Part shown: positions 9,547 through 49,872 of the stretch, one piece after another
Layout of the letters: each line of letters begins with the position of its first letter
How positions within the stretch are numbered: position 1 is the first letter of the stretch
Assembly: GCA_023920165.1 (NCBI GenBank)
Contig: CP089280.1
Coordinates: 2,294,001-2,358,000 of the forward strand
Reading direction: 5' to 3'
Length of the DNA stretch: 64,000 bases
Source: Curvularia clavata
Lineage: Eukaryota
Translations under genes and position numbers: made by a program
The notes under the pieces: model-generated
Databases searched by the model: none
The model's input: the letters and a program-made list of their open reading frames with translations, nothing else
Told to the model about the DNA's origin: nothing

Positions 9547-12395
9547 ATGAACTTCGTTGACGTGCAGCCAAAGTCATTTCTCGACTATGCGTGGACATCA
9601 CCATCACCTACTGTGGCGACTGCGCCCAAACCTTCAAAAACGAGCCGAAAACAGAATAGATGCTGTGATCAATGTCGAAAGGGGAAAAGGGCGTGCGATG
9701 CCGCCATACTCGAGGACACTTTACTGGAAACAAGCAAGACTGGTTCTAGTCCTACAGTATTCCACTACAGTGGTAAGTCGCGTCTTTACACAAGCAATTT
9801 TATGGATCGACTGACTTTCTAGATGTCTATGGACCGCTAGCTTCATGTAGCAACTGTGAAAAGACGAAAAAGGCTTGCACATTTGAATGGCTTCGTTCTC
9901 AGCGTGTGCTACAAGCCTCACAACCGCAGATGACAAATGCGCCGTTACCCAAACGACGTCGAACCAGGAGCAGTTCTACTAGCAAAGCACAAAAGGCGGA
10001 CACGTCTTGTCCTTCTTCAGCCAAAACAATACGAACAGACCCAGCAATCAGCAACTGTGACGAGAACCATTTCAACACCACGCCACCCGAGCTGGGAGTC
10101 ACATTCGGCGACTTTGCTTGCGGAACATCTATGTTTGCTGTAGACCCTGCCGCAAATTTCTTCGGTGGAACAGTATCAAATGCGGAAAGCGAGGAAAATG
10201 AAATTCTTCTCGAACAACTAGCGGTGTTGTCTGAGGAGGATTCTAACCTTCTTGTTTGCGATTCAGGCAAAGGTTCGTCGCTAAGGACGTCGTCAGTCAT
10301 AAGCGATAAACCCGATGACAGTCCAAAAACAGAACATGAGGCCAACGAAGTGGCTGAGACCAACTCGATGAACAATATAGCACCAATTGTAGGCGGCAAT
10401 CGAAAAAGGCGGCGGCGCAGCTTCTCAGCAACGCCTCCATACGGTGCGCCTCCTTACCCAGCAATATTGAATGGGAGCAACATCTTCTCATCTAGTGGCA
10501 ATGCCTACTTGTCTGAAAACTTACTGAGAATCTACCATGATAGTTTCGAAAACGCACTCGCATGTTGGGTAACAGAAAGGACATGTCCGTACAGCGCAAG
10601 GTCCAACGATCTTCTTTCCACAAACGCTAGGCCTGATTGGAAAAGCATTTACCACCGCGTGATACGCCTTGACAGACTGGCAATGACGATCAGAGGGCGA
10701 AGACTTACACAAATAGAAGACCAAGCGGCATCAAAAGCTTTGGACCTTGCTGTACTCGCTTTCGCTTCACAATGGGCGCAATCTGGACAGAGAGGCCGGA
10801 CAAGATACCCGTTCCATAGCACTGCCACCAATGGCGACGGCGGTGTTTTTGAGGGCCAGGGAGAGGATCATAGGTCGACAGGCCTCGAATTCGACCGTAC
10901 TCTTCAGATCACAGCATGGCACAATGCTCGCAACGCATTGCAGAAAGCGAGTGAAATCGAGTCTTTCCGAGTGGTGCTTGCACAGATGATATTTGCGTTG
11001 ACACAAAAGCCTGCAGAAGCGATCATGACGCCCATGACAGCGCTCGATAATGTCAACACGCCAGAAGCGATGAGCTCGACAAACAGCACCGAATACATTC
11101 AAGCTTCCCCGACTATCTCGATCGACACAGACATGGATGAGTGCACAGATCTGATGTCGAGGTTAGATCTCGCAATCGAGGCTGACGGTCCTCCTTTGCA
11201 TCTCGAATCAGGCCTTCGACTTATACATTCATTGCGATCACGCATGACCGTGTGTAGACAGAAACGCCCAAGCAAACCTGAGCCTACGTACCACGGACAA
11301 CAACGGCATGTACCAAAGCTGCGTCTTGAGGAAGCAGATCGCGCAACAGTCGACTTGCTATTCTGGCTTGGTGTCACGTTTGACACATTATCGGCGGCAA
11401 TGCACAAGCGACCGTTGGTAGTATCTGATGAAGACAGCGATGTTGTCCTAAACGAGAGCATGCAAACGTACAGCACAGCAGACGCAAAGACACCATCGGC
11501 TTCGAAACCTGCGAACAGCGGCCTCTGGGATGGATACTTGTTTACTCGTCAACAAGATTCGAGACGAGAACCAACCAGATGGCCGTGCTCATTCGATCAA
11601 GCGGCGACTGCGCTCTGCGATGCTGCTCCAGTCAAGGTGTTGCTTTTCCGAAGAGTATGTCGCATCCAGACGCTTTTGACAAGAAACACACGAGGCGTGA
11701 GAGTCGAAGAGGCCGTGCATGCTGCGCTAGATGTGTGCAACCATTGGGATGCACTTTACGCACCCTTTGTCAGGGACTGCATCCAACATCATAAAAGTCT
11801 CCCTCCTCGTATCCAGTCATGGTATGTCTGCGTTACTGGCCACTGGCACCTAGCCACGCTTCTTCTAGCAGACCTTCTCGAAGTTGTGGATGAATCCGAA
11901 CTGGGTCTCAAGGACGCAACAGAGCATCGAAACTCAATCGGGTTCATCGCCAGATTCCGAGAGAATAACTGCAGGGTCTTATCAGACCTTGCAAACTGCG
12001 CGTGTCCACAGAATGACCCGTCGTTGCCGCAACCCCGCGAACTCAACTTCGCAACTATCGAGGGCGCATTGTTGACAGACCCATGGACTGCAGTCTTGAT
12101 TCGTGCGTTCGCCAAGGCAGGCGTACTGCTACTAGAATCCGAGACACTCTTGCCATCTGAAATGGATCAAGAAGATGCGTTCCGGCGGGCAGATGACTGC
12201 ATCAAGGCCCTATGGTTCTTGGGCAAGAAATCTGACATGGCTCTCTCGGCAGCAAGGATTCTGGGAGATGCATTGAAGCAACGGCGTAAGAGTGCGCAGG
12301 ATCGGATCAGTGACATGACCGCTTTCCTCGCGAGCCAGCCATGGCACGATCTTGATGGGCTTAACGGGGCGTTTGATGTAGACTGTGAACTATAG
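9547..12395 (+). CDS. alcR: Zn2Cys6 transcription factor, AlcR (ethanol regulon activator)-like
   Basis: Intron 9773-9822 splits the zinc cluster RKQNRCCDQCRKGKRAC-(33 aa)-CSNCEKTKKACTFEWL, recalled as closely resembling A. nidulans AlcR (RRQNHSCDPCRKGKRRC...CSNC...CTFNWL). Downstream IYHDSFENALACWVTERTCPY, DAAPVKVLLFR and LPPRIQSWY blocks also resemble AlcR. Confidence 0.75.
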
Positions 12396-21090: not shown

Positions 21091-21988
21091 TCAATCGTCG
21101 AAAAACTTCCCGTTTCCATGTGTACGACACAGTCTCCAAGTATGCACTTCACTCTCTATCGGTCCCCAGCCTCCAATTTCTTCGGCCCGGCTCAATTCCT
21201 TGTTAGAAATGGAGATAAGGCTCTCCCGAACTCTACCTTCAGGCAGTTCGGAGAATTCATGGATAGTCACCCACTTGGGTGGGTCGGGATACGGCTCATC
21301 CGTGGTAGGCAAACCCTTCAGAGCGCGTGACTGAGCGTTTGTCCGTGCGTACAGCAGCTTAAAGTATAGAGTGCGGATGTAATGTGAGGTATTCGAAAGA
21401 TCTCTTGTTTGCTAGTGGCCCATATCAGTACGTAAGTCACTCTGAAAAAGAGAATAATTGTTACCTGGCTGTAGAATGTCATGACCTCGTCACGACCGGG
21501 GTCGTTTTCTGGTTTGATACCGAAGGTGATGATGTATTTGGCTGACCCTGTCATCATGAGTACATATTTAGGGTCAGTTCAGGTCCTAACGTACCGTCTC
21601 CAGTACTGTTCTTCCTCGGCGTAGCACCGAGAAAACCCAAGTAGCTAACATCCATATCGGCAAGATCGTAAATGATACCACTGCCAGGAAGAAACGGGCT
21701 CTTGATATTGATGGCCTTGAACTCATTGCTTTGGGTGAAGGCCAAGTCGTGCATCGGGTAACATACTAAGTATGGCTTGTGGTTTTGAGCGTCGCCCGTA
21801 GGAGATGTCTTGTCAATATCCTGGTAGCGAAAGCCACTCTTGATACTACCGGCAGACACGACTTCTGGAATATGTTCCTCATCGTACCACTTGACAAACA
21901 CACTCTCATTCAAAACATCTTTACTTGCTAGTGCGATACGAGAACGGACAAAGAGCATGCCCGGGCCGCAGATGGCTTCGTTAAACAT
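21091..21988 (-). CDS. Hypothetical protein, EthD/dimeric alpha-beta barrel-like
   Basis: Introns 21548-21594 and 21412-21464 join three ORFs in frame. WYDEEHIPEVV motif is typical of fungal EthD-like proteins. Confidence 0.65.
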
Positions 21989-24800: not shown

Positions 24801-26252
24801 CTATTCGTCGTCACTGTCCTCTATTTCCTCTTCGCCTTGCTCTTCGTTACTCTCGTCTTCGTCAGCCATGCTTGTTTCGGGAGTGCCTTCTCTTGCACGC
24901 AGCTGCGCCTTAAGGCCGTCCAGAATAACAGCCATCCGCCCCTTCAGATCAGGATTCCATACTTGGCTTATCTGGCTCTCCATCTCTTGAATCTTTTTCC
25001 GCAGCTCCTCTGCCACAGTATCTTCTTCCTCCTCTTCCTCCTCTCCGTCCCCGGATCCAGGTCCATCTTCCACTTCAATCCCACCACCAAAAGCACTCGC
25101 AAAATCCGTAGCCATCTTCCGATTTGCAATTGCGAACACGACTTCCTCGATACATGGCCAAACTTCCACATTCGCAACTGATCCTTTACTCTTTCTCTTA
25201 TTCACAGCACTCGTCGACGCCTCGCCATTCAGCACCCTTCGAAACGCCTCTGCAACATCCCTGACCGGATTTCCATATGCGCCACAACCCCACGCACCCA
25301 AGACTAACTTCGCAACTCCCCTCTGCTCCGCCATTCTTAGCACAGCCCGAATCTTCTTCTCTACGATCTCGCGATCCTTTTTCCCCAACCTCTTCTCCTC
25401 GTCTTCCTCACCTTCAAGCTCAGGAAAACGCAGCATACCCGCCGTGATGGCATCGATATACCATCGCTCTGTGGGAACAAGCTCTCCCTGAGAATCTCCA
25501 AGCGGAAGCGCGTTCCGGAATACGAGCACGTCGTGTGTATAGATGCCGCCTTGTTCAGGGAGCCGGTAGTATTCTTCCTTGAGCGAGGGGAGTAGCGTGG
25601 TACGCGCACAGAGAAACTCTTCTTGGGACGTTGCGCCTGCGTAGACGCCGCCGCCGGGGCGGAGAGGAGACGCCATGTTGAGAATGCATACATTTGGAGC
25701 TTTTTTGTTTGAAGGTTTTGCTAAGGTCGCTAAGGGCTGGGAGAGTATATGTGCGGCGGTAAGAGTGTCCGTCGTGATAATGCGTATACTTCGTTCTTTC
25801 TTTGGTGAAGACGGGGCTCCAGGTTGCAACGTTAGGTTTGATAGTTCCTCGTCGAGAGAATCATTGCGCTTTCTTCCTTTGGCTTTAGTTTGCCCTTTGA
25901 CTCCATCTCTTTTTGTGTCACTAACGCCTACACCACCATCTTCGTCAAAAGTCTCATTGCCTTTAACTTTTCGTCTTCCTTGCCCCTTTCGCTTCACGTA
26001 TTCTGTGGTTTCGCCTTCACCACCATCACCATGCGCACGTGCCCCATCCTTGCTCTGGCCTTCTCTTCCTGCTGCTCCGACGGGGCCAGGGTTGGCGATA
26101 AGTTCGCTGCCATCTACACCTCGTCGAGCGCGCGCATTCGATGTCAGAATGGCAGGCACTACTTTATTGATAATGTGGCGTGCCTGTTTGGCTCGAATGT
26201 CTTTGCGAATGGCGGGTGGCGCTAAACCCTGCGATTTTTCTGTGCGACCCAT
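24801..26252 (-). CDS. Bacterial-type poly(ADP-ribose) glycohydrolase (DUF2263/TIGR02452 macrodomain)
   Basis: NMASPLRPGGGVYAGATSQEEFLCARTTL (GGG-X6-QEE PARG signature) and LVLGAWGCGAYGNP. First ATG at 26252. Confidence 0.82.
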   Translation of the reverse strand: MGRTEKSQGLAPPAIRKDIRAKQARHIINKVVPAILTSNARARRGVDGSELIANPGPVGAAGREGQSKDGARAHGDGGEGETTEYVKRKGQGRRKVKGNETFDEDGGVGVSDTKRDGVKGQTKAKGRKRNDSLDEELSNLTLQPGAPSSPKKERSIRIITTDTLTAAHILSQPLATLAKPSNKKAPNVCILNMASPLRPGGGVYAGATSQEEFLCARTTLLPSLKEEYYRLPEQGGIYTHDVLVFRNALPLGDSQGELVPTERWYIDAITAGMLRFPELEGEEDEEKRLGKKDREIVEKKIRAVLRMAEQRGVAKLVLGAWGCGAYGNPVRDVAEAFRRVLNGEASTSAVNKRKSKGSVANVEVWPCIEEVVFAIANRKMATDFASAFGGGIEVEDGPGSGDGEEEEEEEDTVAEELRKKIQEMESQISQVWNPDLKGRMAVILDGLKAQLRAREGTPETSMADEDESNEEQGEEEIEDSDDE

Positions 26253-26849
26253 ATCCACACAGAATCGCCTCTATTAGTTGGCAGGCAGACCCAGGAAAGA
26301 ATACTGATATTTATGACGTTCCAGAAGGAGAGATGTATCGAGAGCGATTGGGAATGCGCAAGATATGATTTGAGAGTACTATGTTGGTTGGTTGCGAGAA
26401 GGGGACTATGACGTTTTCGGTAGATAGTGTGGAGCTTTCCCGTCTAACGTCACAGCATGACTTCTATCCGCAGCTTGTCCCAACTACTAATTTGTCATGA
26501 GATGCAATACTTCATCCGTATTCGATGCCAAGTCGAGTCCGCCTGATACAGGAACAGTTCGGCGAATGGTAGGACGTCTCGACCAATACCCTCCTTTGCT
26601 TGTCCTCAACAACCACATTTATCTGAGAATTGCAAACACATCATGAGTGCATAACATTCTACCAAAAGCTATGGAAATTGTGGATGCTTTACCCCCATTC
26701 AAGTCATGGTTTTTTTCTCTTTACATTTCGGCTGCCGTATTATCGGCATACTAACCTCTTAAATATCCCCCCTTATTCCTCTTCCGCTGATCAAATCTGT
26801 TGCGAAACTCACTCCAGGCAATACAATATAGGCTTCGCATCAACCCAAT

Positions 26850-34915: not shown

Positions 34916-35867
34916 AGCTGAAGCGGACTCCGACTTCTCCTTCATGGACTACCAAAAAGCTTGCGGCGATGATGCCTAGTCGCCTGCCCTGTATAATGTG
35001 TGATATTAAAACAACTAATGACATCACTACCTACTTCTATCTGTTCAACTTTTGGACCCATCTGAGACTCATATGGAGCATGCATTCTCAGTATCTTGTC
35101 GAAGCATGACTCATGTCAAGTCCACGATGCTATGATAATGTATATGCTGCGAGTCATTATGGGCTGTTGTTCTAAGCCTCAGGTCACCATCGTGAGACGT
35201 ACAAGACTGACTCGACGCAAATTGTCGCCGCCACTGAGGCTGTGCGTATTTGTGATTTGTCTGGGATGATGCCAGCAATGCTGGCCAGCTGTGATAAAAG
35301 CGCCTCAGCCATGCTTCCCCACAGCGGTCCGGAAAGGCGCAAGGTGGACGAGACGGGCTGCTGATTGGCTGGAGGTCCTCGAGCCGAGACGCCCGCAAGC
35401 GCCGACCATCTCGCTCCGCGTCCCTGTCACACCTCAACTCCATCGACAATTGGCCACGCCTGCGCCTCAACTGCACGTCTAAAAAGAGGACCGACTTACG
35501 GCGGGAGCTCTGCGAATCTGCTTGCACAATGTCGCTCGCCTACGACATGAGGCACAGCCAAGAGCCAACCAGAGCGCGAAGCGTCTCTAATGCAGAGCCG
35601 ACTTTCTGTCGGACTTGTACTTGTGCAGGTATAGACTCGCCGTTCAGACCTCTGGCCCCAATATGAGGCCTCCTGGCCCCCGGGCTTGATCTTCTTCCGT
35701 ATCTCAGTCCACCTTTCAAAAGTTTATAGCTGGTTGTGCCTCGAAAACGTCCCGCTCACACTACTCGAAATCAATGGCACTTTGAGATACAACAACGCTA
35801 TACCTTGCTACTCGTTTGCCCACGGTACCAGATTTAGAACAGGTCCATTCGAAACATACTCCACATC

Positions 35868-37295
35868 ATGGAATACAAGCAGTATGGACAGAGCCAGCAG
35901 GCTCAGCCTCAGATGACCTCACGACAGCACAACCGCTTCTCATGGCAACAGCCCTTGGAAGATGAGGCGCCACCCTATCAAGAGACACAACAGCAGGCGC
36001 CACAACATCAGCCCCAGCAAAACGCGACACAGCAGTACCCTGCTCAGCAGCACTATCAGCAAAACCCACAATATCAACAACAACAACAACAACAACAACA
36101 ACATCAGCAGCAGCAGCCTCAGCAACATGCCAACACAGATGCCTCACGACATTTCTCCTACGCACAGACACCAGCAGAGATGCGTGCGTTTGTATACACA
36201 TCATCTGCGGATGATCCTCCAATGCCACTCTCTATGCCCATATCCCTTCCGACCTCCCCAGTGGGATACACGCCAATCGATCCCCGACCGCAGTCCATGC
36301 TCGATTCCCAACTTCCGGTCATTCCACGGCAGTCACATGCAGCTGACGTAACGCCGTCTCACCCGCAGGAAGTCCAATCACCCGTCTCGCCCGTCTCGCC
36401 TCAGCATTCTTCATATACACAGACTCAGCAGTTCTCTCCTGTTTCCCCAATACCATATCCACAGCCTGTCCAGCATGGACCTCAGGTGAATACACAACAA
36501 AGCAGGCATGCGCGACAAATGAGCAACCTATCGCCCATCAACACCAACGTACGGATACACACCATGCCAACGATTCCTCCTACCCCTCCATCAGGGACTC
36601 ATCAGACGTCACCGCTACCCCAAAAAGCACCCATAACACCCATTTCAGCCAACTCCATGCACAAAGAGCAACCGCGAAACATTTCTACTTCTCCTACCAA
36701 TCAGACATCGTTCGCACATGAGCCATATTCTCCCCATGGCTTCGCAAGCCAAACCAACAACTTCCACGCCGTCTTCTCTCCAGACGCTGCCCACGGTCCC
36801 AACGGGCTGGATTTCGCTGCGCATCAGCCGGGACAGATTGCGCACCCCAACATGGAGTCTGAGAGCTCCCACCAATGGCAAAACAGTCTTTGCGCATGCA
36901 GTCCCGAGCCTTCGACATGCTTCACTGGCCTGTTTTGCCCTTGCATCTTATATGGTCGCACTTCATATCGCCTCTCTCAGAAATCGGCAAAGAACGATCC
37001 AACGGACATGCTAGGTCACAGCTCCACTAATGGACATTGCATGGTCATGGGTTTATCATGTGGATTATGGTGGCTTTTTCCCATGCTGCAACGGACTCGC
37101 ATCCGACGAGCGTACAAGATCAAAGGCAGCTTCGGTAGTGATTTGCTCAGGGGATGTTGCTGCTGTTGCTGTGTTGCTGTACAAAACGAGAGGGAAGTAA
37201 AAGGAAGAGAAGAAGCCAGCAGGCGTTGGGCGGGGCCGGCAAGCACAGATGTTTATACAAGGAGTGATGGCATGGTGTACAAACCACAGCAATGA
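35868..37295 (+). CDS. PLAC8-family Cys-rich protein with long Q/P-rich N-terminus
   Basis: WQNSLCAC..CFTGLFCPCILYG, RTRIRRAYKIKGS..D, CCCCCCVAVQNERE (PLAC8 QxxRE signature); intronless. Confidence 0.88.
   Translation: MEYKQYGQSQQAQPQMTSRQHNRFSWQQPLEDEAPPYQETQQQAPQHQPQQNATQQYPAQQHYQQNPQYQQQQQQQQQHQQQQPQQHANTDASRHFSYAQTPAEMRAFVYTSSADDPPMPLSMPISLPTSPVGYTPIDPRPQSMLDSQLPVIPRQSHAADVTPSHPQEVQSPVSPVSPQHSSYTQTQQFSPVSPIPYPQPVQHGPQVNTQQSRHARQMSNLSPINTNVRIHTMPTIPPTPPSGTHQTSPLPQKAPITPISANSMHKEQPRNISTSPTNQTSFAHEPYSPHGFASQTNNFHAVFSPDAAHGPNGLDFAAHQPGQIAHPNMESESSHQWQNSLCACSPEPSTCFTGLFCPCILYGRTSYRLSQKSAKNDPTDMLGHSSTNGHCMVMGLSCGLWWLFPMLQRTRIRRAYKIKGSFGSDLLRGCCCCCCVAVQNEREVKGREEASRRWAGPASTDVYTRSDGMVYKPQQ
36075..36101 (+). 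repeat. (CAA)9 microsatellite encoding polyglutamine
   Basis: Direct reading of the sequence. Confidence 0.9.
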
Positions 37296-38004: not shown

Positions 38005-39626
38005 TTAGCTGACATAGCGCCAAGTATTCACCACACCAGTTCTCTCCTCCTCCCTTTCAATCGCCTTGTTCTTCCTTGCCGCCCACCACTTGGCCGCCAA
38101 ACAAAACACCACTGTCAACCCGGCTCCTACAATAATACAACCCCCACCAACCTGGTACCTAGGCGCCTGGTTCTGCAGAAAAAAGTACGGTGTGAACCAA
38201 TGACTCACACTGCTCACGCAGTTAGCAATAGCGATCAAGGCCGCCCTCTTCGTTCGCGGTCGAGGCACAACTGTTGTTTCCCATGAAAGCTGCAGATTGA
38301 GCCCGAGGAATGGACCCGATACCAGAAGGAACATTGAGAAATACCGCACGCCGACGTTGAGTGTCGATATCATGATGACTGCACCAATCAGTGTGAGAAG
38401 AATGCTGAACACAATGTGGTAGCAGTGTTCCAGCCTTCGACCGGACGACCAGGAGACCAGGAGTGTGAAAATGTACGCGAAGACGTACGGCGGTGCTTGA
38501 ATAAGGTATGTTTCAACTTTTCCGAAGCCGAGGGTGTTGACGATGGAGGGGAAAAAGTCCTTGAAGGACTGGGAGACAATGATGGCGAAGTGCATGCCGG
38601 CGAATAACCAGGTAAAGGGGTCTTTTAACGCCAGGACCACACCCGTCCACATTTCGCCTTCGTCGTCTTCGGACTGCCCGCCTGCAGATACAATGGCACG
38701 GTACTCGGCCATTTGGCGTTCAGCCTCAGACATGAAGTACGTTCCGGTATTGTTCGGCCAGTTGGGGAGGAGCCAGAAGCCGAGCATAGCAACTAGAATA
38801 CTGACGATGCCTTCGAGTAAAAGAAACCATTGCCAGGCGTGTAAACTAGCAACATCGTCCATGTTGGTAAGAATGCCGGCAGCCAGGAGTCCAGAGAACA
38901 CATTTGAGATGATATTTCCGGCATGCCAGATACCCATGCGCAAGGGGGATTCTTCCTTGGTGTACCATGAGCTTGTCATCAGAGTGACAACAGGTAGAAC
39001 TAAAAAAGAAATTAGCATTATTCTCACGTACAGCAAGCACGTATAGAACTTACAAGGGCCTTCAGTTATACCGACGAGGAACCGGCATAACATAAACCCC
39101 CACGGCGCAGTAACGGCAGGCATGGCGATGGTAACGGCCGACCAGGCAAGCATGATGCAAGGGAGGATAACGCGAGGAGATGATTTAGCAACCCAGACAT
39201 TGCCTGGAACTTGACTGATGATATATCCGACGTAGAAGAGGGATATTCCAGCCGACCATTCAACATCAGACATGTGCAGATCTTCTTGCATTCCTGCGAG
39301 TCGTGCATTGGAGACGTTGATGCGGTCGAGGTAGCTAATTTTCCCAGGGTCAGCCTACTCGATATCTATATCACTGTTGCTGGTAGGCCCTACTTCATCA
39401 ACAGCATCATCGTGATGCATGGAAGAAATTTCCAGTCCAATTTCTTAAGAACGGACTTGTTAAGCTTGTCCAGCTCTTTGTCCGATTTTTCCACTAGCAG
39501 AGGATACTTGGCAAGATATTCTCGGTTAGGCGTTTCTTCAACATTGTCGATGTGAGTCGTGTCTCCTTTCTTGTCGGTGCTGGAACGCACGGAGAGCGTC
39601 TCCCCTGCTTCCGTGGTATATGCCAT
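38005..39626 (-). CDS. MFS transporter, anion:cation symporter (allantoate/nicotinate/tartrate permease family)
   Basis: Introns 39335-39393 and 39000-39053. KKLDWKFLP, NYLDRINVSNARLAG, SSWYTKEE..R, WQWFLLLEG and PPY motifs. Confidence 0.9.
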
Positions 39627-39893
39627 TGAATAAGTACGGAAGATGTTTTTCGCAGAGATGAACTCTGAGCTGGAATGCCCATTTCTGCATGTAGAAACGT
39701 CAAGTTATATACATTACCTGCCAAGGCAGTTGCACTCTCAACATGACTTCCCCGCGATCAAGTCGTGGCATACTTTGCGGGGAAGGTTGTCTTGGTGTTT
39801 TCTTGGTGATTTCTTGGTATTCTCTCAGCTCGCACGGATGGGGATTCATAGCAGTGTGTCCAGTACCAGTGTGCATCTGCAGTGAGTAAACTG

Positions 39894-39972
39894 TCGGGGT
39901 CTTCGGTCATGTAGTGGCGAACTAGGCTCGGGGCCCTCGGTGACAGGGGTCTGTTCTTCGGTGGGTGTCCGA
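39894..39972. promoter_or_regulatory. Clustered CGG elements in divergent MFS/aldolase promoter (2x TCGG-N6-CGGT, 1x TTCGG-N7-CCGA)
   Basis: TCGGGGTCTTCGGT (39894-39907), TCGGGGCCCTCGGT (39928-39941) and TTCGGTGGGTGTCCGA (39957-39972). CGG triplet pairs are the established Zn2Cys6 site architecture. Confidence 0.55.
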
Positions 39973-40151
39973 GCCACTGGCACGCCTTACAAAACGCTCG
40001 GAACGGGGACGTGGGGCTGGATTACCCCAGAGATAATTGATACCAGATCGTATAAAGTTGTGTACCTCGTCCTTGGCTTGATCTTGTACGAACATCGCAC
40101 CGCTTTTGTTTTCTATTATCGAATTTACATTTGCTGCTCAATCAATTCAAA

Positions 40152-41143
40152 ATGGCAGAACTGACATTACGCAACTCGATCCGGGAGAAGATGCTCAAAG
40201 ATGAGGTCGCATACACACTCTCCGTTAAGCTCGTTCGAAGCGTTGAGCTTCCCATGATGGCTAAGACGGCTGGCTTCGACGGCATACTCATCGACATGGA
40301 ACATTCGTCTTTCGATTTAGATACAACAGGTAGGGGTTCGCGCGACAACTCAAAAGTTACCTTTTCTAACTAGTTTCCATAGGACAACTTTGCATGGCAG
40401 CGCTATATGCTGGTATTGCGCCCATTGTACGCGTACCCTCCAAGGATCAATTCTTCATCTCCCGGGTCCTGGACGGCGGCGCACTAGGAGTCATTGTTCC
40501 TCATATTAGATCTGTACAAGACGCCAAAGATGTTGTTGCCGCAGCCAAATTCCAACCGCAAGGCCACCGGTCATCCACAAATGGACTTCCTCATTTCCAG
40601 TTTCGCTCATTCCCTGCCAAGAAGGCAAATCCAGTCGTCAATGCGAACACACTTGTGATCCCCATGGTGGAGACCGTAGAGGCAGTAGAATGTGTTGAAG
40701 AATTGGCTGCTGTTGATGGTGTTGATTCACTACTGATCGGTACCAACGACATGACTGCCGAGATGGGTATTCCTGGTGATTATGAGAATCCCCGGTTGAC
40801 GGAAGTGTATCAAAAGACGATTGATGCTTGCAATAAGCATGGAAAGTGGGTTGGTGTCGGTGGCTTGCACTCGCGGATGGACTTGGTCGAGAAATTCTGT
40901 GCGATGGGTGCAAGGTGGGTCATGGCTGCCACAGATGGGCCACTGCTGCTGGCCGGAGCGACCAAAAGGGCGTCGGAAATGCAAGCCCTTTCCCAGAGAG
41001 TAACAAACTCGACTACATCGAAGCCAACAAACGGGGTGAACGGAGTGAATGGGCACAATGGAGCTGCTACTAATGGATTGAAACAAGCACCAAATGCCAC
41101 AGTGCAGGAAATTCCCGCATCGGGGAACGGAATAACCTCATAG
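40152..41143 (+). CDS. HpcH/HpaI class II (metal-dependent) pyruvate aldolase
   Basis: Intron 40330-40382. AGFDGILIDMEHS, VRVP, LDGGALGVIVPHI, PMVET and LLIGTNDM motifs. Confidence 0.9.
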
Positions 41144-41186
41144 ATTATCGTTGTAATGATTAGAAAATTTCCATAGAAATTCATGC

Positions 41187-43050
41187 TCATCGCCAAACTG
41201 GTTGACCCAACGTAGCCTGATTTGAGCTGTGGTCGAACATCAGCAGTTGAAGCTGTTCAGAAATTACAATATCCGAGGTTGCGACCAGCATCCGTAATCG
41301 ATCGCGTGAGTGGGCGGGGAGAACACATTGCTGGAGTTCCAAAATAATGTCGCGAAGACTGATCATGGCCGAATAGCGTAGGGATAACAGGGTTAAGGCG
41401 TTCGATACCTTGGCAAGCTTTGGGACGTTATCTGGACGTCCTTGCGTAGTTCCAGCGATAATGACACCGATGCTGAAGAGAAGGAGCGCATCTATAGAGG
41501 CTACTGACCCATCACTGGATACTAACTTCTCTTCCACAGCATTAAGGTAGTTGGAAAAGTCCTCGAAAGCTTCGTCGACTATGCTTGTACGATCCGGATC
41601 ACCAAGCCATGAAGGTTGTTTGAGCAACTCCACATATGCGCGCGCACTCAGCGCGATATGATACAAGTTCGTTGGGGAGTCGCTTCGGGGGATGCTCTCC
41701 TTCCAGTGTCGAATATTGATGAAATGACACAGAATACCTGCTTCCCTATCTTCATCGCTACGAATTGAGCGGAGCATTTGTGCATATTGTACCATGTATC
41801 GAAGGTTGATATCCTCGTTATCACCTCCAGCATTTCGTGATGATGGAGAAGATGGTACCTGCCAGAGTCTCAGCAAAGCAGTTTTGGAAAATGAAGGTGC
41901 TTAGTACTGAAACCAGAATGTCTTTGCGGTCCAACCCAAACGGCCTGTCTAGAGTTGCGCTCACGATTCTGCACAGAGTCAATGGTAGCCATTCTCCCAG
42001 TGCTTGGATTACGCACGTATCTAAGACATAAAGCGTCCATAGCGTTTGGTTGCCCTGGCATTGTTCCTCGCTCTCAGAGTGAGGGTCAGAGAGACGTGAT
42101 GTGTGCATACCAGCTGAGACGCACCGTGTCAGAGCCAAGCCCAACAAATGCCATGTCGACCCTCCGAGAGACGTGTACAGCGAATATATAGTCAGTGCTG
42201 CTAGACAATGAACTACTGATAGTGGCCGGGAACGATCGAGGACTTGGGGCATCAAGCCGATTGCATTAACTGCAAGTTCTGTCGAATACATTTCTTTGTA
42301 AGTGTAATGCGCGCCTAGTAGTATACCTGTTGCCGTTCCGATGTATACCAAAACATGTTTTTCTGGACAGTTGGAAACCTCAGAGGCATGCACTACAGTG
42401 TCGTACTGTTCGAAGAGCTCATTTCTGGCTATGAACGGAAACATGGTCTGCAGCATGTTGACATAAAGTTCGAAAGCAGCGCGCATATCGGTACCGCCTA
42501 GATCAACGCTAAGTGAATGGTTTTGGCGAAGTTCTGCGAGAGGACCAGATATTGCCATGTTTCTACCCAAAGGGAGCGTTGGATTGGCACCGCTGACTCC
42601 GGTCGCCGCGAACAAAAAGGTCAGAAAAGAAAGGCCTCCGATGGGAGATGGCAAACGGTCCGTACGCTCCGCCATAGCAGATAATGACAGGTATGCCATA
42701 TCATCCTGTGCAACACGATCGGCTGATGCGACACTACTGAGAGGCGTCGTTTCGACAGCTGGGGAATCCTCGCAACCTCCGTTCTGGAGGCGTGATCGCA
42801 TGTTCTGAACCCTCCTTCGTAGTGCCTCGATTCCGACCTCATTTACGATTTCAGAAGGACTGGTCGCGGAACCAAAGCCTCTCTTGACACATCTAACAGC
42901 TGCAGTGCGACATTGATGGCATGTCGGTACTTCTCGAGAGCACTGGAAAGAGGTTAGAATTTGCCTTCAAGAGCAACAAGGTATGGACATGAAAACCTTC
43001 TGCTTCCGACGCCAGCATCGCTCACATGCTTGCGACATAGATTCGGCCAT
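41187..43050 (-). CDS. Zn2Cys6 transcription factor with fungal-specific TF domain (cluster regulator 1)
   Basis: Intron 42943-42996 splits ACERCWRRKQK|CSREVPTCHQCRTAAVRC. WTLYVLD..SATLDRPFG middle homology region; two further introns around 41860-42016. An alternative in-frame ATG lies at 43086. Confidence 0.82.
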
Positions 43051-43335
43051 TGGGATATGTTTTCCGATGGTTGGAGCATTGCGCATGCTTTGGGTTCGGG
43101 GATGGTCCGATTACATATGTGGGGTGCCATTCAGCAAACCGGGAAGGGCCTCGGTCCGATTCCGAGCGCAGTTAGGTCACTTGGACAAGGGCAAAGAATA
43201 GATTATACGCTAAAACTTGGTACATGAATCTAGCAATCCTGGTGAAGAAAAGCGTATGATTATAATCAGGCTATAGATTGATGAGTAAATGATCCATTAT
43301 CATCCAACAGCCCAATCAACTTCGTGTTTTCAAAG

Positions 43336-45157
43336 CTATCTACCTGCATGGTGTTCGATACGCACTTCACCATGTTTCTCTTCATCAACCATATCTCCCA
43401 ATTTACCATCTGTACTAGGAGCTCCTCCATCTGCCAAGTCATCCGCGGTTGGATAGGCCACCCTCCTGACAGTATACCATGGGCGCTGGAACAGCTTATC
43501 CAGGCTCTCAAGTGAGCGTCCAGCGGTCTCTGGCAGCGCGAAGAAAACGTACACTAGAGACGCACAGCATATGCTGGCAAAGAATGCAAATGCGCCAAAT
43601 CGATCTGTGGCAGCCAGTAGACTGGGCATGGCACGCGAGCAGCCAAAGTAGAATGCCCAGTGAAATGCCATGAGAATAGAGACGTTGAGCGAGCGAATCC
43701 GGACGGGAAAGACTTCGGCGGAAACAAGGTATGGGATAGAAAACCAGCCGATTGACCAGGCAACAGCGTGTATGAATATTGCGACAATGCTTGCCTTACT
43801 GGCAGCCGTCGCGCTTGCACTTGCCTCGATTTGTGCAGCTGACATACCGTTGGTGACACCCAGGTATGCGCCAACGAATGTGAGGGTCAGGATCTGAAGG
43901 GTAATCCCGAGCATGAGGGAGCGTCGGCGGCCAATGAAGTCAATGACAAAGATGGAGAAGATAAGCACGGAGACGAATTTGACAATGCCGTAGAGACCGG
44001 TCGCGAGGAAGCGTGATTCTTCGCCCTGAATGCCCAGGTAGCCGAAGATGGAGGGCGAGTACTGCGTGATGGCATTTGCCCCAGACCACTGTCCAAACAT
44101 ATGGCAAAGGAACATGAGAACGAACCTCCGGCGGTACTCAGTCACTGTAAAGGTCTCCTTGAAGAGGTCCCATACAGTAGCACCACTAACAGCCTCAATC
44201 TCGATGTTCAGTTGTCGTTCAATGCCGTTGAACTCTTCCAAGATGTAAGGATGGTCTTCAGGTAGGTTTCTGAATCTGCATAGGACTTGCAAGGCTTCGG
44301 TGGGCTTGTTCTTGGAGAGCAAGAAGCGAGGTGACTCTGGCGTGAATGCAATACCAATTCCCCAGATCACAGCCGGAATGAGCTGCAAGGCAGTAGGAAG
44401 TTGCCATTGCAATCGTGTACCCGCATGGTACTTTGTAATGCCGTAGTTGAAGAAGAATCCGAATACGACGCCCAGCTGTTGGCAACACGCGTATTGGAGC
44501 GTGATTAACCCTCTGATACTGCGAGGAGCAATCTAGACTTGGTAATCAGTATCGTCCAACGTTGGGCTATGCCTCCTAGTATTATTTACTCACCTCGGTA
44601 AGGTAGATTGAAGGCAAAACTGTCGTTGTACCAATCCCAATACCGGAAATAAAGCGCGTGGCGTACAAGGCTGACAAGTTTCCGTTGGAGAAGGTCTGGC
44701 CAAGGATTCCGGCGATATAAATGACGGTGAAGACCAACATGGTATACTTCCTTCCCCACAGCTGAACGAGATTGATGCAAGCCAGACAGCCAAAGACGGC
44801 ACCCGCAGTCGCGATTGAAACGATCCATCCTTTAGTGTCTAGTAGCGCAAGGGTCAGTCTGGATATCAAGGTAACCTGTTCGGTGCTTCCTACTGGCATA
44901 ATGAGCGTCACTCTCGTGAGCAACATTGAAGTCAGTCTTGAAAACCTTTTGTACAACAATCGATGCGATATTGCCTGGTTTGAAGTTTAGTATTTTATTC
45001 CCAGACGTACGAATCCAAACATACCCTCATCGAATCCTTTCGCCACACCCGAAAAACTCCACACCGCAGTGCAGAAAAACAGCCAGAAATTGAATATCTC
45101 AGGCGGACATGCCTTGATGGCCTTCACAGTATCTTTGAGAAGGCTAGACTTCGCCAT
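43336..45157 (-). CDS. MFS sugar porter, quinate-permease-like
   Basis: GFDEG, WGRK, EIAPRSIRG (across an intron), PESPRFL, QWSGANAITQYSP, IDFIGRRR, SAEVFPVRIRS and LPETAGRSLE. Three introns between about 44535 and 45024. Confidence 0.9.
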
Positions 45158-45614
45158 ATTGATGAGAGGTCGGTCAATACTCGTAGATGCAAGAGGCGTA
45201 CAAAAAAGACAGCGCCGCAGACTTTTCTAACGGGTACAACTACATTTTCTATACAGTATCCATCACTAGTTTGGGGCTAGATGCGAAGACCGTGCAAGCT
45301 AGTCGTGTGGGGACCCCGCGTTCGGGCTCACTTCCGAGATCGCATGTTCACCACCGAAGCGCCCGAAGCAAGTCGGATAGCGCCTTCAACCTCATCGGAC
45401 ACGGACCTGACTGACTCGCTTCATGGTTCCGATGCCCGCGCGAGTTATGTCTATCTCATGCGAAGGCAACGGGAAACCTTCCGATAATCGATAAGACGCT
45501 GCAAGACTGAAACCCTTGGTAGCCGAGGCACATATCTTATTAGGTCGTCGAGCCAGGCGCGTTTTGTGACTTTACCATTGTTCTGATCTTTCATTGCAGC
45601 AGTGATTTCTCATT

Positions 45615-46656
45615 ATGGCTCCAGGAATACTTTCGTCCACCCCCGATTCGGCTGATATCGCGGGCCCAAAGAAGGCAACTGTCTACCTTCTGGACTCGTT
45701 TCACCCAACTGCCACAAAACACGCACAAACCCTTTTTGACGCTGTATTGCCAAATGATCCTCGACACAAAAACTGGCGCGAGAAGGCCGAGTACCTTCTC
45801 GTTAAAGGGTCCTACTTGACTGCAGAAGATGTCGCTTCATGTCCGAACCTCAAGGCTTTAGGAAAGCAGGGTGTTGGTAATTAATCCCAAGCCGTGTGTT
45901 TCTCACTCTCATAATCGTACTAACTGTCCATGAGGCATTGATAAAATCGACGCCGAGGCCTGCAAAGCCCGTGGCATAAAAATCTTCAACACTCCCGGCG
46001 TCAACGCCCAAGCTGTTGCCGAAACAGTCCTTATGCTTGCCATGTCCGTTGCACGAGAAGTGGGCAAGATCACAGCATTTCAGACTGAAGGCAAAGTCGT
46101 TCCAAAAGAGCAATGTTCGGGCCTGATCATAAGCCAAAAAACAATAGGAATAGTGGGCATGGGCAATATTGGACAACGGGTAGCCAATATCTTCCAGCGC
46201 GGTCTCAACTGCAATGTTGTGGCGTACGATCCGTTGTTGCCACAAGACGCATGGGCGGATATCCCGCATAAGCGCGTACAAACACTCGAAGAAGTGTTAC
46301 AAGAGTCGGACATCCTTACGCTGCATATCCCGCTTCTGCCGCAGACTAGGAACCTGATCGCATATCCCCAACTATCAATGATGAAGCGCAACGTTATCCT
46401 CATTAATACCGCGCGTGGTGGAATCGTGAACGAGTCTGACTTGGAAAAGGCACTAAAAGAGGGGCTGATATGGGGTGCGGGCCTAGACTGCCACGAACAA
46501 GAGCCGCCTACGAAAGAGAAGTATGGAGGTCTGTGGGCGACTGGCCGGGTGGTAAGCACGCCACATGTTGGTGCAGCGACAGCTCAGACACAAATGGAGA
46601 CAGCCATGGCTGCAGTAGACAGGCTGCACCAGTATGTACAAGCAACAAATCCGTAG
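45615..46656 (+). CDS. D-isomer-specific 2-hydroxyacid dehydrogenase (SerA-like catalytic core, no ACT domain)
   Basis: Intron 45877-45934. KQGVGIDKID, NTPGVNAQAVAE, GIVGMGNIG, YDP, INTARGGIVNE, GAGLDC.EQEP and TPHVGAAT. Confidence 0.92.
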
Positions 46657-46659
46657 ATA

Positions 46660-48591
46660 TTAATACAGTTCTGGAGTAAAATCGGTGTCTTCCATTGGTA
46701 TCCAGCCCCAGGCATACTCTCCTAGTCCAGCCTCAAGCTGTGTCATTAAATCCAGATTGTCTGTCAGACCCAGGCCCAAGTCAATGGAATCGGCGTTGAC
46801 GGTATTGACTTCATTGTTTGTGCTTTCAAATGCTGGATTGGAGAAACTCGCTGGTAATTCAGGGTCGTCAGGAGCAGTGCTGGTTGGATTATAAATCGCA
46901 TTGGCATTATGGGTCGAGCCAGTGTTGACACGATGACGAATGCACTCATCTTTGAGTACGCCAAAAACAATAGCAAAAGACCCAGCATCTGGCATCTTTT
47001 CCTTGAAGAAATTCAGAATGCCGTGACACATTGTGAGGATGCGAACAGCATCGCGATTCTCTAAAATGCTTGTCTCAACTTCCAGGCTAAGGCAGAAGAT
47101 GATGGTCAATCCAGCGGTAAAGATCATCTGAAAATAGCTTCGCGTCCAGGTGATAGCTTGCTTATCCATCAGGTCTGCATAGAGCTCGATGACTCGACTC
47201 GCGGATTCATAGCATGGTATGACAATCATCTTCGTTATAGCGCCCGTTGTTGAGTGGAGCGTTAGATTATGCATAGCACCTCGCGCCAGGAGCATGAGGT
47301 CTTTTTCGTAGAGAAAGTCATGCCATTCTGGTCGTTCATAGAGTGACCGAGGGCTCGCGAAACATGGCATTGTTGAACGCCAAAGATTCAAATCCGTACG
47401 GAATCGAGAGAAGCAGGTATACACATGGCCCACCGATTTAAATCTAGGCTCTGAGCTTCTGCCAGTGTAGAAGCGGGTGTGAATCTGGGAGCTTATCTGT
47501 CGCAGCTTTATGCAATGTATAAACACTGAGAGTTCAGTGGGTGTTGAGCTAGTCTTGGGTGGTACGAGGTCAAGAGACGAGGCGGAAGACTCAGCCAGCG
47601 CTTCGTCATCAATGTCTACCGGGAGGGGAACACTGATGTTTGATTCTGAAATAGCAAAAGGGCGACCCAGAATGCCTGAGCTATACCGGTCAAGGATGTA
47701 GCATTCCCAGAATATCCGTCGGCGATGCTGCTCAGTCACAAGACTGAGCGACTCGGAGTTTCGAAGATGAAGACGCCATTCGATGCATTGCCGCATGCAC
47801 AATTGAGAGATATCCCACATCGAGGTTCCAATATAATGGTACATCCCAAACCGATGAATCAGGAGAAGATTCTCAATAGCGTTGACACTTCCGATCAAAG
47901 GGATCTGTCTGAGATAAGATCCAGCAGCTATGAAATATCCAAGTGGATTTTCGGAGCTGAGACCCGCACGATGTCTTGTGGTACAACTAATTGCGAACAC
48001 CATGAGCAAGCGATAGAGGTCTTGGGCTGAGGGCGCATCATCAGGCCTCGAAGTAGTGTAAATGCGATTGTAGATGGCTAGGACTTCTTCGCGAAGGAGA
48101 AACGTATGATGGATATGAAATCGTCTGAAGTAGTTGTCTAAGAGTTGTTGGGCTTCATGCGGTGGTGGTAGTGAGTTTGGTGTCAGGTTTTGCCTATGCA
48201 CTCTGGGTCGAGCAGCCAGTTGAGTCAAGATGTGAGTACGGTGCTGCTGCCATCTTGCATCAGACAGGATACTATTGAGGAATCCCAGGCCACTGCCATC
48301 CCCGACATAGTAGCTTCTCCTTCCAGCATCATCAGATGTCGGAGTCGGCACTGAATGGGCCTCAGTAGCAGTTGCAGTCAGCTGGGTCCCATTCAGTCTC
48401 TCGTTCAAACTCTTCTCCTCTTCCTCTAGCTGCGCGATGAAGCCTCGGGAATACTGCTCTCCACTTTCGGGATCGACGATGATGCAAGCGACTCCTCCCT
48501 TGGTGCAGTTGGTACATTTCGGCGCTTGTCGGTCGCATCGGACCTTGCGCAGCTTGCATTTCTGACATGCCGGCAGCTGCAGTTGGGTCAT
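46660..48591 (-). CDS. Zn2Cys6 transcription factor with fungal-specific TF domain (cluster regulator 2)
   Basis: ACQKCKLRKVRCDRQAPKCTNCTKGGVAC and RRRIFWECYILDRYSSGILGRPFAI; intronless, ATG at 48591. Confidence 0.9.
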   Translation of the reverse strand: MTQLQLPACQKCKLRKVRCDRQAPKCTNCTKGGVACIIVDPESGEQYSRGFIAQLEEEEKSLNERLNGTQLTATATEAHSVPTPTSDDAGRRSYYVGDGSGLGFLNSILSDARWQQHRTHILTQLAARPRVHRQNLTPNSLPPPHEAQQLLDNYFRRFHIHHTFLLREEVLAIYNRIYTTSRPDDAPSAQDLYRLLMVFAISCTTRHRAGLSSENPLGYFIAAGSYLRQIPLIGSVNAIENLLLIHRFGMYHYIGTSMWDISQLCMRQCIEWRLHLRNSESLSLVTEQHRRRIFWECYILDRYSSGILGRPFAISESNISVPLPVDIDDEALAESSASSLDLVPPKTSSTPTELSVFIHCIKLRQISSQIHTRFYTGRSSEPRFKSVGHVYTCFSRFRTDLNLWRSTMPCFASPRSLYERPEWHDFLYEKDLMLLARGAMHNLTLHSTTGAITKMIVIPCYESASRVIELYADLMDKQAITWTRSYFQMIFTAGLTIIFCLSLEVETSILENRDAVRILTMCHGILNFFKEKMPDAGSFAIVFGVLKDECIRHRVNTGSTHNANAIYNPTSTAPDDPELPASFSNPAFESTNNEVNTVNADSIDLGLGLTDNLDLMTQLEAGLGEYAWGWIPMEDTDFTPELY

Positions 48592-48883
48592 CCTAAATCC
48601 AGGGGGTGGGTGGGAGTGATGCGGAGAAAAGTATGGGGATGCTGGAAGGTAGCCGATGAGTAGTAGGCGCATTCGGCCCCACACCGATGCCTTTGTTTCG
48701 CGGGATTGGTTTACATTACCTAGACCTCCGCAGTTGAGCCGTTGCAGCGTGGGTCGAATCACGGTAGGGCGCCTGACTCGCTTGACCCATCTTTGATGAA
48801 CTTTGCGACGGATGCTATGTATGTCCAAGAGAGTAGATAGATGATCTGGAATCCCTCAGAAGGTGCGTAGTTGACCGTAAAAC

Positions 48884-49872
48884 ATGAACTTCTATCCGCC
48901 CCCTCCCACAATAACCGCATCCCTATACTATCGTGTTCCCGACGAGGTCAGATGCAAAGACCGCGATTCGGAATGGCGAGGAGGTTTCAGCCGGACCTTT
49001 CAGAATATTTTTCTCGAAGGTCCAGTTTACACCTCGTCAGGTGATCTCTATGTAGTGGATATCCCCTACGGCCGAATACTCAGCATCTCGCCCTCAAAAG
49101 ACGTCAAGGTTGAGGCTGAATGGGACGGTGAACCAAATGGTCTGGCCGTAGACCCTGAGGGCAAGATTGCGATTGCAGACTATAAGCAGGTATGGTACCA
49201 AAGTATTAGCAGGGCTGGATATCGGCTGAGCCTAGCTAGGGTATTCTAACATTCGATCCATCGACGGGCAAGATAACGCCACGGCTCTCGCGTCGAAACC
49301 TAGAGCGCTTTAAAGGTCCTAACGATCTAATTTTCAGCTCGAGAGGTGACCTATACTTCACGGACCAGGGACAAACCGGACTAACAGACCCCACTGGGAG
49401 AGTGTATCGCCTTTCGCCTGATGGCAAACTCGACACACTCGTAGAAAATGGCGTCAGCCCCAACGGACTGGTGCTCTCCCCGGACGAGAAGTTCCTCTTC
49501 GTTGCTATGACTCGTTCGAACGCGGTCTGGCGGCTCCCACTTCATGCAGACGGGACTACGAGCAAAGCAGGCCTTTTCTTCCAGAGTTTCGGAACCGCTG
49601 GACCAGATGGTCTCGCAATGGATGAGGAAGGGAGCCTGTTTGTATGTCATCCAAGTTTGGGATCTGTTTTTGTACTTAATGCGGACGGAACTCCAAAAGC
49701 AAGGATCGTGTCTGGTACGGCGGGTGTGAATCTGACGAACTGCTGTTTCGGTGGCCGAGAAGGCAAGACTTTATTCATCACTGACAGCTTAGAAGGCAAC
49801 GTGCAATACGTGGAGTGGCATTGCAAAGGCGCGACTGCAGTTCCCACGATAGTAGGGAAAAAGAGCTCATAG
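48884..49872 (+). CDS. SMP-30/gluconolactonase/LRE-family lactonase (six-bladed propeller)
   Basis: Intron 49190-49239. Metal-ligand motifs FLEGP, PNGL, FKGPNDL, YFTD, SPNGL and GPDGLAMD. Confidence 0.9.

Follow-up and report, generated by a model that had tools for sequence, protein, structure and literature searches.

We have analyzed a 64,000-nucleotide stretch of the Curvularia clavata genome (assembly GCA_023920165.1, contig CP089280.1, positions 2,294,001 to 2,358,000; hereafter the window), which contains a group of seven adjacent genes at positions 38005–49872. The cluster is a conserved orphan pathway built from known protein families, and its genes are probably co-regulated. Judged by gene content, its core of lactonase, 2-hydroxyacid dehydrogenase and aldolase is a unit found again in both fungi and bacteria, in most cases with no dehydratase beside it. 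With about even confidence, we propose that the cluster encodes an inducible catabolic module, in which an alpha-hydroxy-gamma-lactone would be opened, oxidized at C2 and cleaved to pyruvate and a carbonyl compound.

The region covers about 12 kb between the stop codons of its first and last genes, which encode an importer of the major facilitator superfamily (MFS; 38005) and the lactonase (49872). Gene models and Pfam matches give seven intact genes, each encoding an open and stop-free protein. They are arranged as three divergent pairs (MFS/aldolase, sugar porter/dehydrogenase and TF2/lactonase) with the regulator gene TF1 in between, as an earlier note on this DNA had described. All 11 predicted introns, distributed over six genes, are found as joints in transcript contigs of the public runs X1, X5 or X9, which come from three studies. 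These six genes are therefore transcribed and spliced as modeled; the contigs show splicing and cannot rank expression. The exons of the aldolase are 100% identical to the C. clavata record P0121, and those of the dehydrogenase to P0241. The GC content is 50.0% within the cluster and 40.5% and 38.9% in the flanking spacers, and the neighbors are PLAC8 and DUF1264 genes by Pfam, so that the AT-richer spacers and unrelated neighbors of the earlier description were borne out. So was the absence of a dehydratase: the open reading frames (ORFs) of the cluster and its flanks matched no dehydratase family, nor did 56 further ORFs of the window, and queries of the window for UxaA and for the mandelate racemase/muconate lactonizing enzyme (MR/MLE) family gave no match. 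Neither the aldonate dehydratase nor the aldose dehydrogenase required by the classical non-phosphorylative aldonate pathway was found within the unit.

The three enzymes keep the functional residues of their families. Single exons were scanned against equivalog profiles with curated cut-offs, and in these scans none of the three reached the cut-off of a characterized equivalog. The lactonase (48884–49872, forward strand, intron 49190–49239) is a beta-propeller protein of 312 amino acids (aa) of the SMP-30/gluconolactonase family. It matches PF08450 and retains E45, N130, N177 and D225, which we take from the family to be the metal site; on this basis it is probably a lactone-hydrolyzing enzyme. 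Its best relatives of solved structure, the Rhodopseudomonas palustris beta-propeller lactonase 7RIS and Staphylococcus aureus Drp35, are distant (E ~1e-23), and its close relatives, at ~45–67% identity, are uncharacterized proteobacterial proteins. The D-2-hydroxyacid dehydrogenase (45615–46656, forward strand, intron 45877–45934; 327 aa) has both Pfam domains, with the R248/E277/H298 triad, the GxGxxG motif and the acidic D186 for NAD all kept. Its exon 2 scores 211.5 bits against the SerA phosphoglycerate dehydrogenase model, for which the cut-off is 454; that model has 525 positions, and the protein is too short to contain the SerA regulatory domains.

The third enzyme is an HpcH/HpaI class II pyruvate aldolase of 312 aa (40152–41143, forward strand, intron 40330–40382). 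Its PF03328 barrel keeps D48, E50, H51, R76, D90, E156 and D182, of which, as in the family, the Arg, His and Asp are presumably catalytic and the Glu and Asp presumably bind the metal. The structural model is a confident barrel (pLDDT 88) that fits HpcH structures at 22–28% identity, in matches that define the family only. Near the active site M154 replaces a Gln, and a G-T-N-D loop has T-N in place of P-x, which places the enzyme in an uncharacterized subfamily. Against the GarL, HpaI and RhmA equivalogs exon 2 scored 64–93 bits, below the cut-offs of 369–441, and a cluster-database search returned only unnamed HpcH clusters.

How might these proteins work together? Two importers would take up a small hydroxy acid, as the acid, the lactone or both. 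One is an MFS anion importer of the ACS/Dal5 type (39626..38005, reverse strand; exons 39626–39394, 39334–39054 and 38999–38005; 502 aa; PF07690), whose best TIGR match, TIGR00893, scores 81 bits, under the cut-off of 395. The other is a sugar-porter MFS protein (45157..43336, reverse strand, three introns; 551 aa; PF00083, TIGR00879). The SMP-30 enzyme would open the alpha-hydroxy-gamma-lactone to a 2,4-dihydroxy acid, freeing the C4 hydroxyl, and oxidation at C2 by the NAD-linked dehydrogenase would yield a 4-hydroxy-2-oxo acid. Cleavage of this by the HpcH enzyme would then release pyruvate together with an aldehyde, a ketone or an oxo acid. With a CH2 (deoxy) already at C3 of the substrate, a dehydratase would be unnecessary. 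The gamma-lactone ties up the C4 hydroxyl required for the retro-aldol reaction, and the 2-hydroxy group is one oxidation away from the 2-oxo group to which a pyruvate aldolase binds, so that, by established chemistry, three enzymes would suffice. The genes, their splicing, catalytic residues, linkage, promoter motif and bacterial partners were observed; the reaction order and the class of substrate we infer.

The earlier note had named synteny of orthologs in other genomes as a check, and clustering was found in both fungi and bacteria. In fungi the linkage was looked up for 30 of 360 listed matches, a sample and not a census; rearranged forms of the cluster occur in both Dothideomycetes and Sordariomycetes. 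Periconia macrospinosa (PVI00953/56/59), Colletotrichum plurivorum (KAF6813661/62/65), C. musicola (KAF6843365/66/69) and Gaeumannomyces hyphopodioides (RB595_010384/86/88) each encode the three enzymes within a span of seven accession or locus numbers. In Verticillium albo-atrum, Hypoxylon trugodes, Ilyonectria robusta and four Fusarium species (e.g., FGSG_08017/08020, FOXG_02696/02700), two of the three genes are neighbors, as they are in Didymosphaeria, Coniosporium, Aaosphaeria, Boeremia and three Bipolaris species. The top 120 matches include no aldolase or dehydrogenase from a named Aspergillus or Penicillium; lactonases of these genera are among the matches listed. Of ten fungal-looking loci in metagenomes, seven have additional cluster orthologs, in an order that varies; L001 has six of the seven genes, reshuffled. 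A second HpcH subfamily occurs near the lactonase in two of the ten loci (L002:16105-16911 and L008:15556-16365); it is paralogous, at 41–42% identity, and forms a sister clade. Two long proteins, P0465 (922 aa, Fusarium graminearum) and P0494 (934 aa, Gaeumannomyces tritici), cluster with the aldolase and lactonase; they are probably merged gene models of neighboring genes, and one is named Zn2Cys6.

The conserved linkage is accompanied by a conserved promoter motif. The cluster encodes two Zn2Cys6 regulators, TF1 (43050..41187, reverse strand; exons 43050–42997, 42942–42017, 41968–41908 and 41858–41187; 570 aa; PF04082) and the intronless TF2 (48591..46660, reverse strand; 643 aa; PF00172, PF04082), which are 20.5% identical. 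The six-cysteine cluster of TF1 is split by its first intron and is complete on removal of this. Zn2Cys6 proteins usually bind inverted CGG triplets. The spacing CGG-N7-CCG was first noticed in the window promoters and was then tested on other loci. In the cluster it occurs in the divergent promoters of MFS/aldolase (39959..39971) and TF2/lactonase (48674..48686), and twice upstream of TF1 (43097..43109 and 43152..43164). Over 28 upstream regions (17,438 bases), several of them from loci of the same two metagenomes, there are 41 such sites, compared with a mean of 3.9 and a maximum of 11 in shuffled sequences, and none of 300 shuffles reached 41. The motif is present in 23 of the 28 regions, and 37 of the 41 sites lie outside the window; the other CGG/CCG spacings (N6, N8–N11) occur in the same regions at chance. 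When a matrix was built from the 37 outside sites only, four of its six best matches in the window fell within the cluster's promoters, which total 1,559 bases. The paralogous aldolase genes of L002 and L008 also have CGG-N7-CCG upstream. High-scoring sites outside the cluster were noted at window positions 21617, 52432 and 59343.

Both conserved linkage and a common cis-element, the features of a fungal catabolic cluster with its own regulators, are thus found, and together they indicate that the seven-gene unit goes beyond chance. As far as such comparisons can tell, the genes are probably co-regulated through the motif, with TF1 and/or TF2 presumably the factors that would switch them on.

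The same catalytic roles are brought together around bacterial members of the lactonase family. From 70 bacterial lactonase loci in metagenomes, the 37 with at least 3 kb upstream were counted. An RraA-family aldolase together with a 2-hydroxyacid dehydrogenase was found in 26 of the 37, TctC receptors in 21, a citryl-CoA lyase in four and an MR/MLE gene in three. A second set was taken from the family of Pigmentiphaga, which we take to be the Burkholderiaceae, where 123 of 301 genomes contain the lactonase. The 40 loci fetched from its 44 best matches include 26 with RraA and dehydrogenase, 33 with TctC and one with MR/MLE. An uncharacterized operon of Burkholderiales reads RraA, hydroxyacid dehydrogenase, SMP-30, MFS/TctC (e.g., BYI23_D003030-3060), and the importers near bacterial lactonase loci are of the TctC, TRAP and ABC types. 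The bacterial RraA protein has as its best solved relative the Pseudomonas putida aldolase (3NOJ) for HMG (4-hydroxy-4-methyl-2-oxoglutarate) and CHA (4-carboxy-4-hydroxy-2-oxoadipate). According to the available part of PMC5065237, this enzyme differs in structure from HpaI; it is a class II pyruvate aldolase and cleaves 4-hydroxy-2-oxo acids via a pyruvate enolate. Bacterial RraA proteins did not reach the LigK cut-offs (146 versus 304.5 and 167 versus 179 bits). Searches of genomes sampled from the Pigmentiphaga class, which had no positive control, found no close relatives (E ≤ 1e-55) of the aldolase in 401 genomes or of the dehydrogenase in 400. A phosphorylative look-alike was seen at L094:4678-11046, with a phosphotriesterase-family protein, a related dehydrogenase, an FGGY kinase, KDPG aldolase and another SMP-30 gene.

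In one alphaproteobacterial operon (L240:6945-15520) we find the fungal trio itself. The order is amidohydrolase, dehydrogenase (46% identity), HpcH (38%) and lactonase (49%), with an AtuA-like gene next. Another HpcH gene, whose product is 54% identical to the fungal aldolase, is found ~8 kb upstream. Both HpcH genes and AtuA are also present in L091, where the lactonase is missing. Trees of the fetched sequences only were calculated with FastTree and midpoint-rooted, and from these we make no claim about the direction of gene transfer. The fungal dehydrogenases form a clade that is sister (0.93) to Pseudolabrys enzymes encoded beside an HpcH gene; both then group (0.91) with a clade that includes the enzymes of the MFS-dehydrogenase-RraA modules of Leclercia and Pantoea. 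The Leclercia plasmid module (L084:6592-12486) reads MFS, hydroxyacid dehydrogenase, RraA, adhE. Its RraA gene is annotated 'diguanylate cyclase', yet matches PF03737. The adhE product could take the aldehyde, and this one case would place the dehydrogenase before the aldolase.

Might the dehydrogenase instead act last, as the earlier note offered as its second option? The lactone of a 4-hydroxy-2-oxo acid would then be opened and cleaved, and one product (glyoxylate, hydroxypyruvate or pyruvate) reduced; zymonate/parapyruvate, CHA lactone and the lactone of a 2-keto-3-deoxy sugar acid are candidates. The thermodynamics of the family favor reduction. Moreover, this order predicts the same set of genes, so that the bacterial counts of RraA with dehydrogenase, and L240, fit it equally well. 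Parapyruvate arises chemically from pyruvate and lactonizes to zymonic acid, according to the part of PMC11951559 available. However, the lactonase-free MFS-dehydrogenase-RraA modules, one of them continuing into adhE, are more simply explained by oxidation followed by cleavage, and a cluster with two importers and two regulators would seem less economical if dedicated to a damage metabolite. We regard a final reduction as unlikely, though a serious contender.

The lactonase neighborhoods also bear on the nature of the substrate. At L011-L014, L017, L027, L228 and L250 the lactonase family is in an operon with CoA-transferase III and citryl-CoA lyase (PRK06224), often with an IclR regulator. 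This gene content suggests breakdown of a citrate-like lactone, and these lactonases are the bacterial ones most closely related to the fungal enzyme. A Roseomonas relative of the lactonase adjoins HMG-CoA lyase. The recurring logic would be the opening of a lactone followed by carbon-carbon cleavage at the carbinol by HpcH, RraA or a CoA-lyase. The carboxylate transporters and citryl-CoA-lyase partners favor a polycarboxylic acid over a plain aldonate, and the substrate probably carries extra carboxyls, as in a reduced HMG- or CHA-like compound or a 3-deoxy sugar diacid. We can speculate, with low confidence, that it is a lactone formed by a branched polycarboxylic hydroxy acid, for example 4-carboxy-2,4-dihydroxyadipate (reduced CHA), and that plant-associated ascomycetes have assembled from bacterial-type parts an unrecognized but widespread carbon-cycle pathway under a two-factor CGG-N7-CCG switch. 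Reduced CHA would suit all the downstream solutions seen, namely oxidation with cleavage by HpcH or RraA to pyruvate and oxaloacetate, and CoA transfer followed by citryl-CoA lyase. Hamamelose and hydroxycitrate were considered and rejected; no supporting paper was found, and their chemistry fits only part of the contexts.

The dehydratase-free route of the earlier note ran from a sugar lactone through an aldonate or aldarate. Its self-contained character stands, since the trio recurs and MR/MLE genes are rare beside it, but its substrate is less likely than a 3-deoxy, probably polycarboxylic, 2,4-dihydroxy acid. In such a route an aldono- or aldarolactone would be oxidized at C2 with the C3 hydroxyl kept, and cleaved to hydroxypyruvate and an aldehyde. 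A sugar-porter importer is present, and there is an HpcH-family structure with hydroxypyruvate (6R62). Against this, the aldolase of the bacterial partners is of the HMG/CHA pyruvate type, the carriers (TctC, TRAP and ACS) are for carboxylates, and the nearest relatives of the lactonase are partnered by CoA-transferase and citryl-CoA lyase. The chemistry of citryl-CoA and HMG-CoA lyases needs a CH2-COOH arm, which aldonates do not have. Nor is an aldose dehydrogenase a recurrent member of the fungal loci; a single short-chain dehydrogenase/reductase was found, in L002. Overall we find an aldonate or aldarate substrate quite unlikely.

A classical non-phosphorylative sugar-acid route with an unlinked dehydratase, leaving the dehydrogenase to handle a side product, is very unlikely. 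The window covers only part of the genome, so a dehydratase could be encoded elsewhere; MR/MLE genes adjoin the module in L037 and the lactonase in L201. There is also a precedent in the HpcH aldolase of fungal rhamnose pathways, AN9425, which by gene number is remote from the rest of the pathway, according to the part of PMC9699597 available. But no dehydratase was found beside any of the 10 fungal loci or in the window, and MR/MLE genes are at only 3/37 and 1/40 loci in bacteria, where operons are normally complete.

The pathway could in principle run in the biosynthetic direction, HpcH condensing like the citrate synthase SbnG or macrophomate synthase, the dehydrogenase reducing, SMP-30 interconverting acid and lactone and the transporter exporting. 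The best sequence match of the aldolase among solved structures is indeed SbnG, with the same Met at position 154, but the identity is only 26%. The bacterial versions carry uptake receptors (TctC, TRAP, ABC), and in them HpcH is replaced by the catabolic RraA or a CoA-lyase. We consider biosynthesis highly improbable.

Several observations weigh against the route from alpha-hydroxy-gamma-lactone to pyruvate. D-2-hydroxyacid dehydrogenases usually favor reduction, and the sugar porter fits a sugar-like acid equally. The porter/dehydrogenase promoter of the window (45158..45614) has no CGG-N7-CCG, only two N8 variants at 45323 and 45470. In five fungi (Bipolaris oryzae, Zasmidium, Trichothecium, Thozetella and Stachybotrys) the best lactonase match is unlinked to the aldolase or dehydrogenase match, being on another contig or far off, and L004 and L007 hold a lactonase without orthologous partners. 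In bacteria, 13 of the 40 Burkholderiaceae loci have none of the queried lyases; what they contain instead are FMN hydroxyacid dehydrogenases, TRAP carriers or a gene of the isocitrate lyase family. In the alphaproteobacterial family of Pseudolabrys and L240 the link is otherwise weak, with the trio present at one of 20 lactonase loci, RraA with dehydrogenase at none, and such a dehydrogenase at six. The partners of the sister clade (0.89) of the fungal lactonases are CoA-transferase III and citryl-CoA lyase rather than a dehydrogenase and an aldolase, so that family context need not fix the substrate; nor need lactonases at 50–65% identity have one substrate in common. Lastly, the pathway assignment is a prediction from genes, and our confidence in it stays midway.

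Elsewhere in the window, the PLAC8 gene (35838–37295, forward strand) has a long, Gln/Pro-rich N-terminus, an ORF at 24804–26270 (reverse strand) bears a microbial-type PARG catalytic domain (PF10021), and an open frame of 872 codons at 9777–12392 (forward strand) has no Pfam match at 1e-5.

The earlier note did not recognize a characterized fungal pathway here, and we too found no characterized match. The cluster is not described in the available parts of PMC12994016, PMC9007349, PMC11951559, PMC8147782 and bioRxiv 2020.10.29.360412. No published account was found in a search that did not extend to subscription journals or supplements, and no paper was found for the ortholog identifiers FGSG_08016-08021, FOXG_02696/97/98/02700, An12g01570 and SNOG_02192, supplementary tables being outside that search. 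Fungi have many orphan catabolic clusters, which limits the surprise. Nevertheless, this one is common to many plant-associated fungi and soil and water proteobacteria, and it comes with a predicted class of reaction, a motif for its regulators and three small enzymes from uncharacterized subfamilies. Its solution would name a common natural carbon source so far unlinked to these genes, correct the widespread labels RhmA, phosphoglycerate dehydrogenase and gluconolactonase, and supply biocatalysis with a cascade from lactone to pyruvate that needs no dehydratase, and with a new pyruvate aldolase.

Among known systems, the three genes required for galactarate catabolism in Aspergillus niger belong to other families (available part of PMC5153877). 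The fungal non-phosphorylative L-rhamnose pathway (lraA-D, AN9425; steps from the available parts of PMC9699597 and PMC13158570) resembles the cluster in having a lactonase, a 2-keto-3-deoxy acid that HpcH cleaves to pyruvate and an aldehyde, and a dedicated activator. The cluster has a 2-hydroxyacid dehydrogenase in place of the aldose dehydrogenase and dehydratase, and its lactonase is SMP-30. The lower pathway of protocatechuate 4,5-cleavage and gallate also ends in retro-aldol cleavage to pyruvate, but there the aldolase is RraA, whereas the fungal enzyme has the HpcH fold, the lactonase is SMP-30 and ring-cleaving genes are absent. Neither an RraA-fold LigK nor an amidohydrolase-fold lactonase/hydratase, nor any other match to these two families, was found in the window or the fungal loci. 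At the level of single enzymes, Escherichia coli GarL, HpaI and RhmA and S. aureus SbnG have their fold and metal and catalytic residues in common with the cluster aldolase at 22–28% identity, and the metal-site positions of 7RIS and Drp35 align with those of the lactonase. The Burkholderiales operon has an aldolase of another fold, and its dehydrogenase and lactonase fall in clades apart from the fungal ones; it nevertheless unites the same three catalytic roles with anion uptake, usually without a dehydratase.

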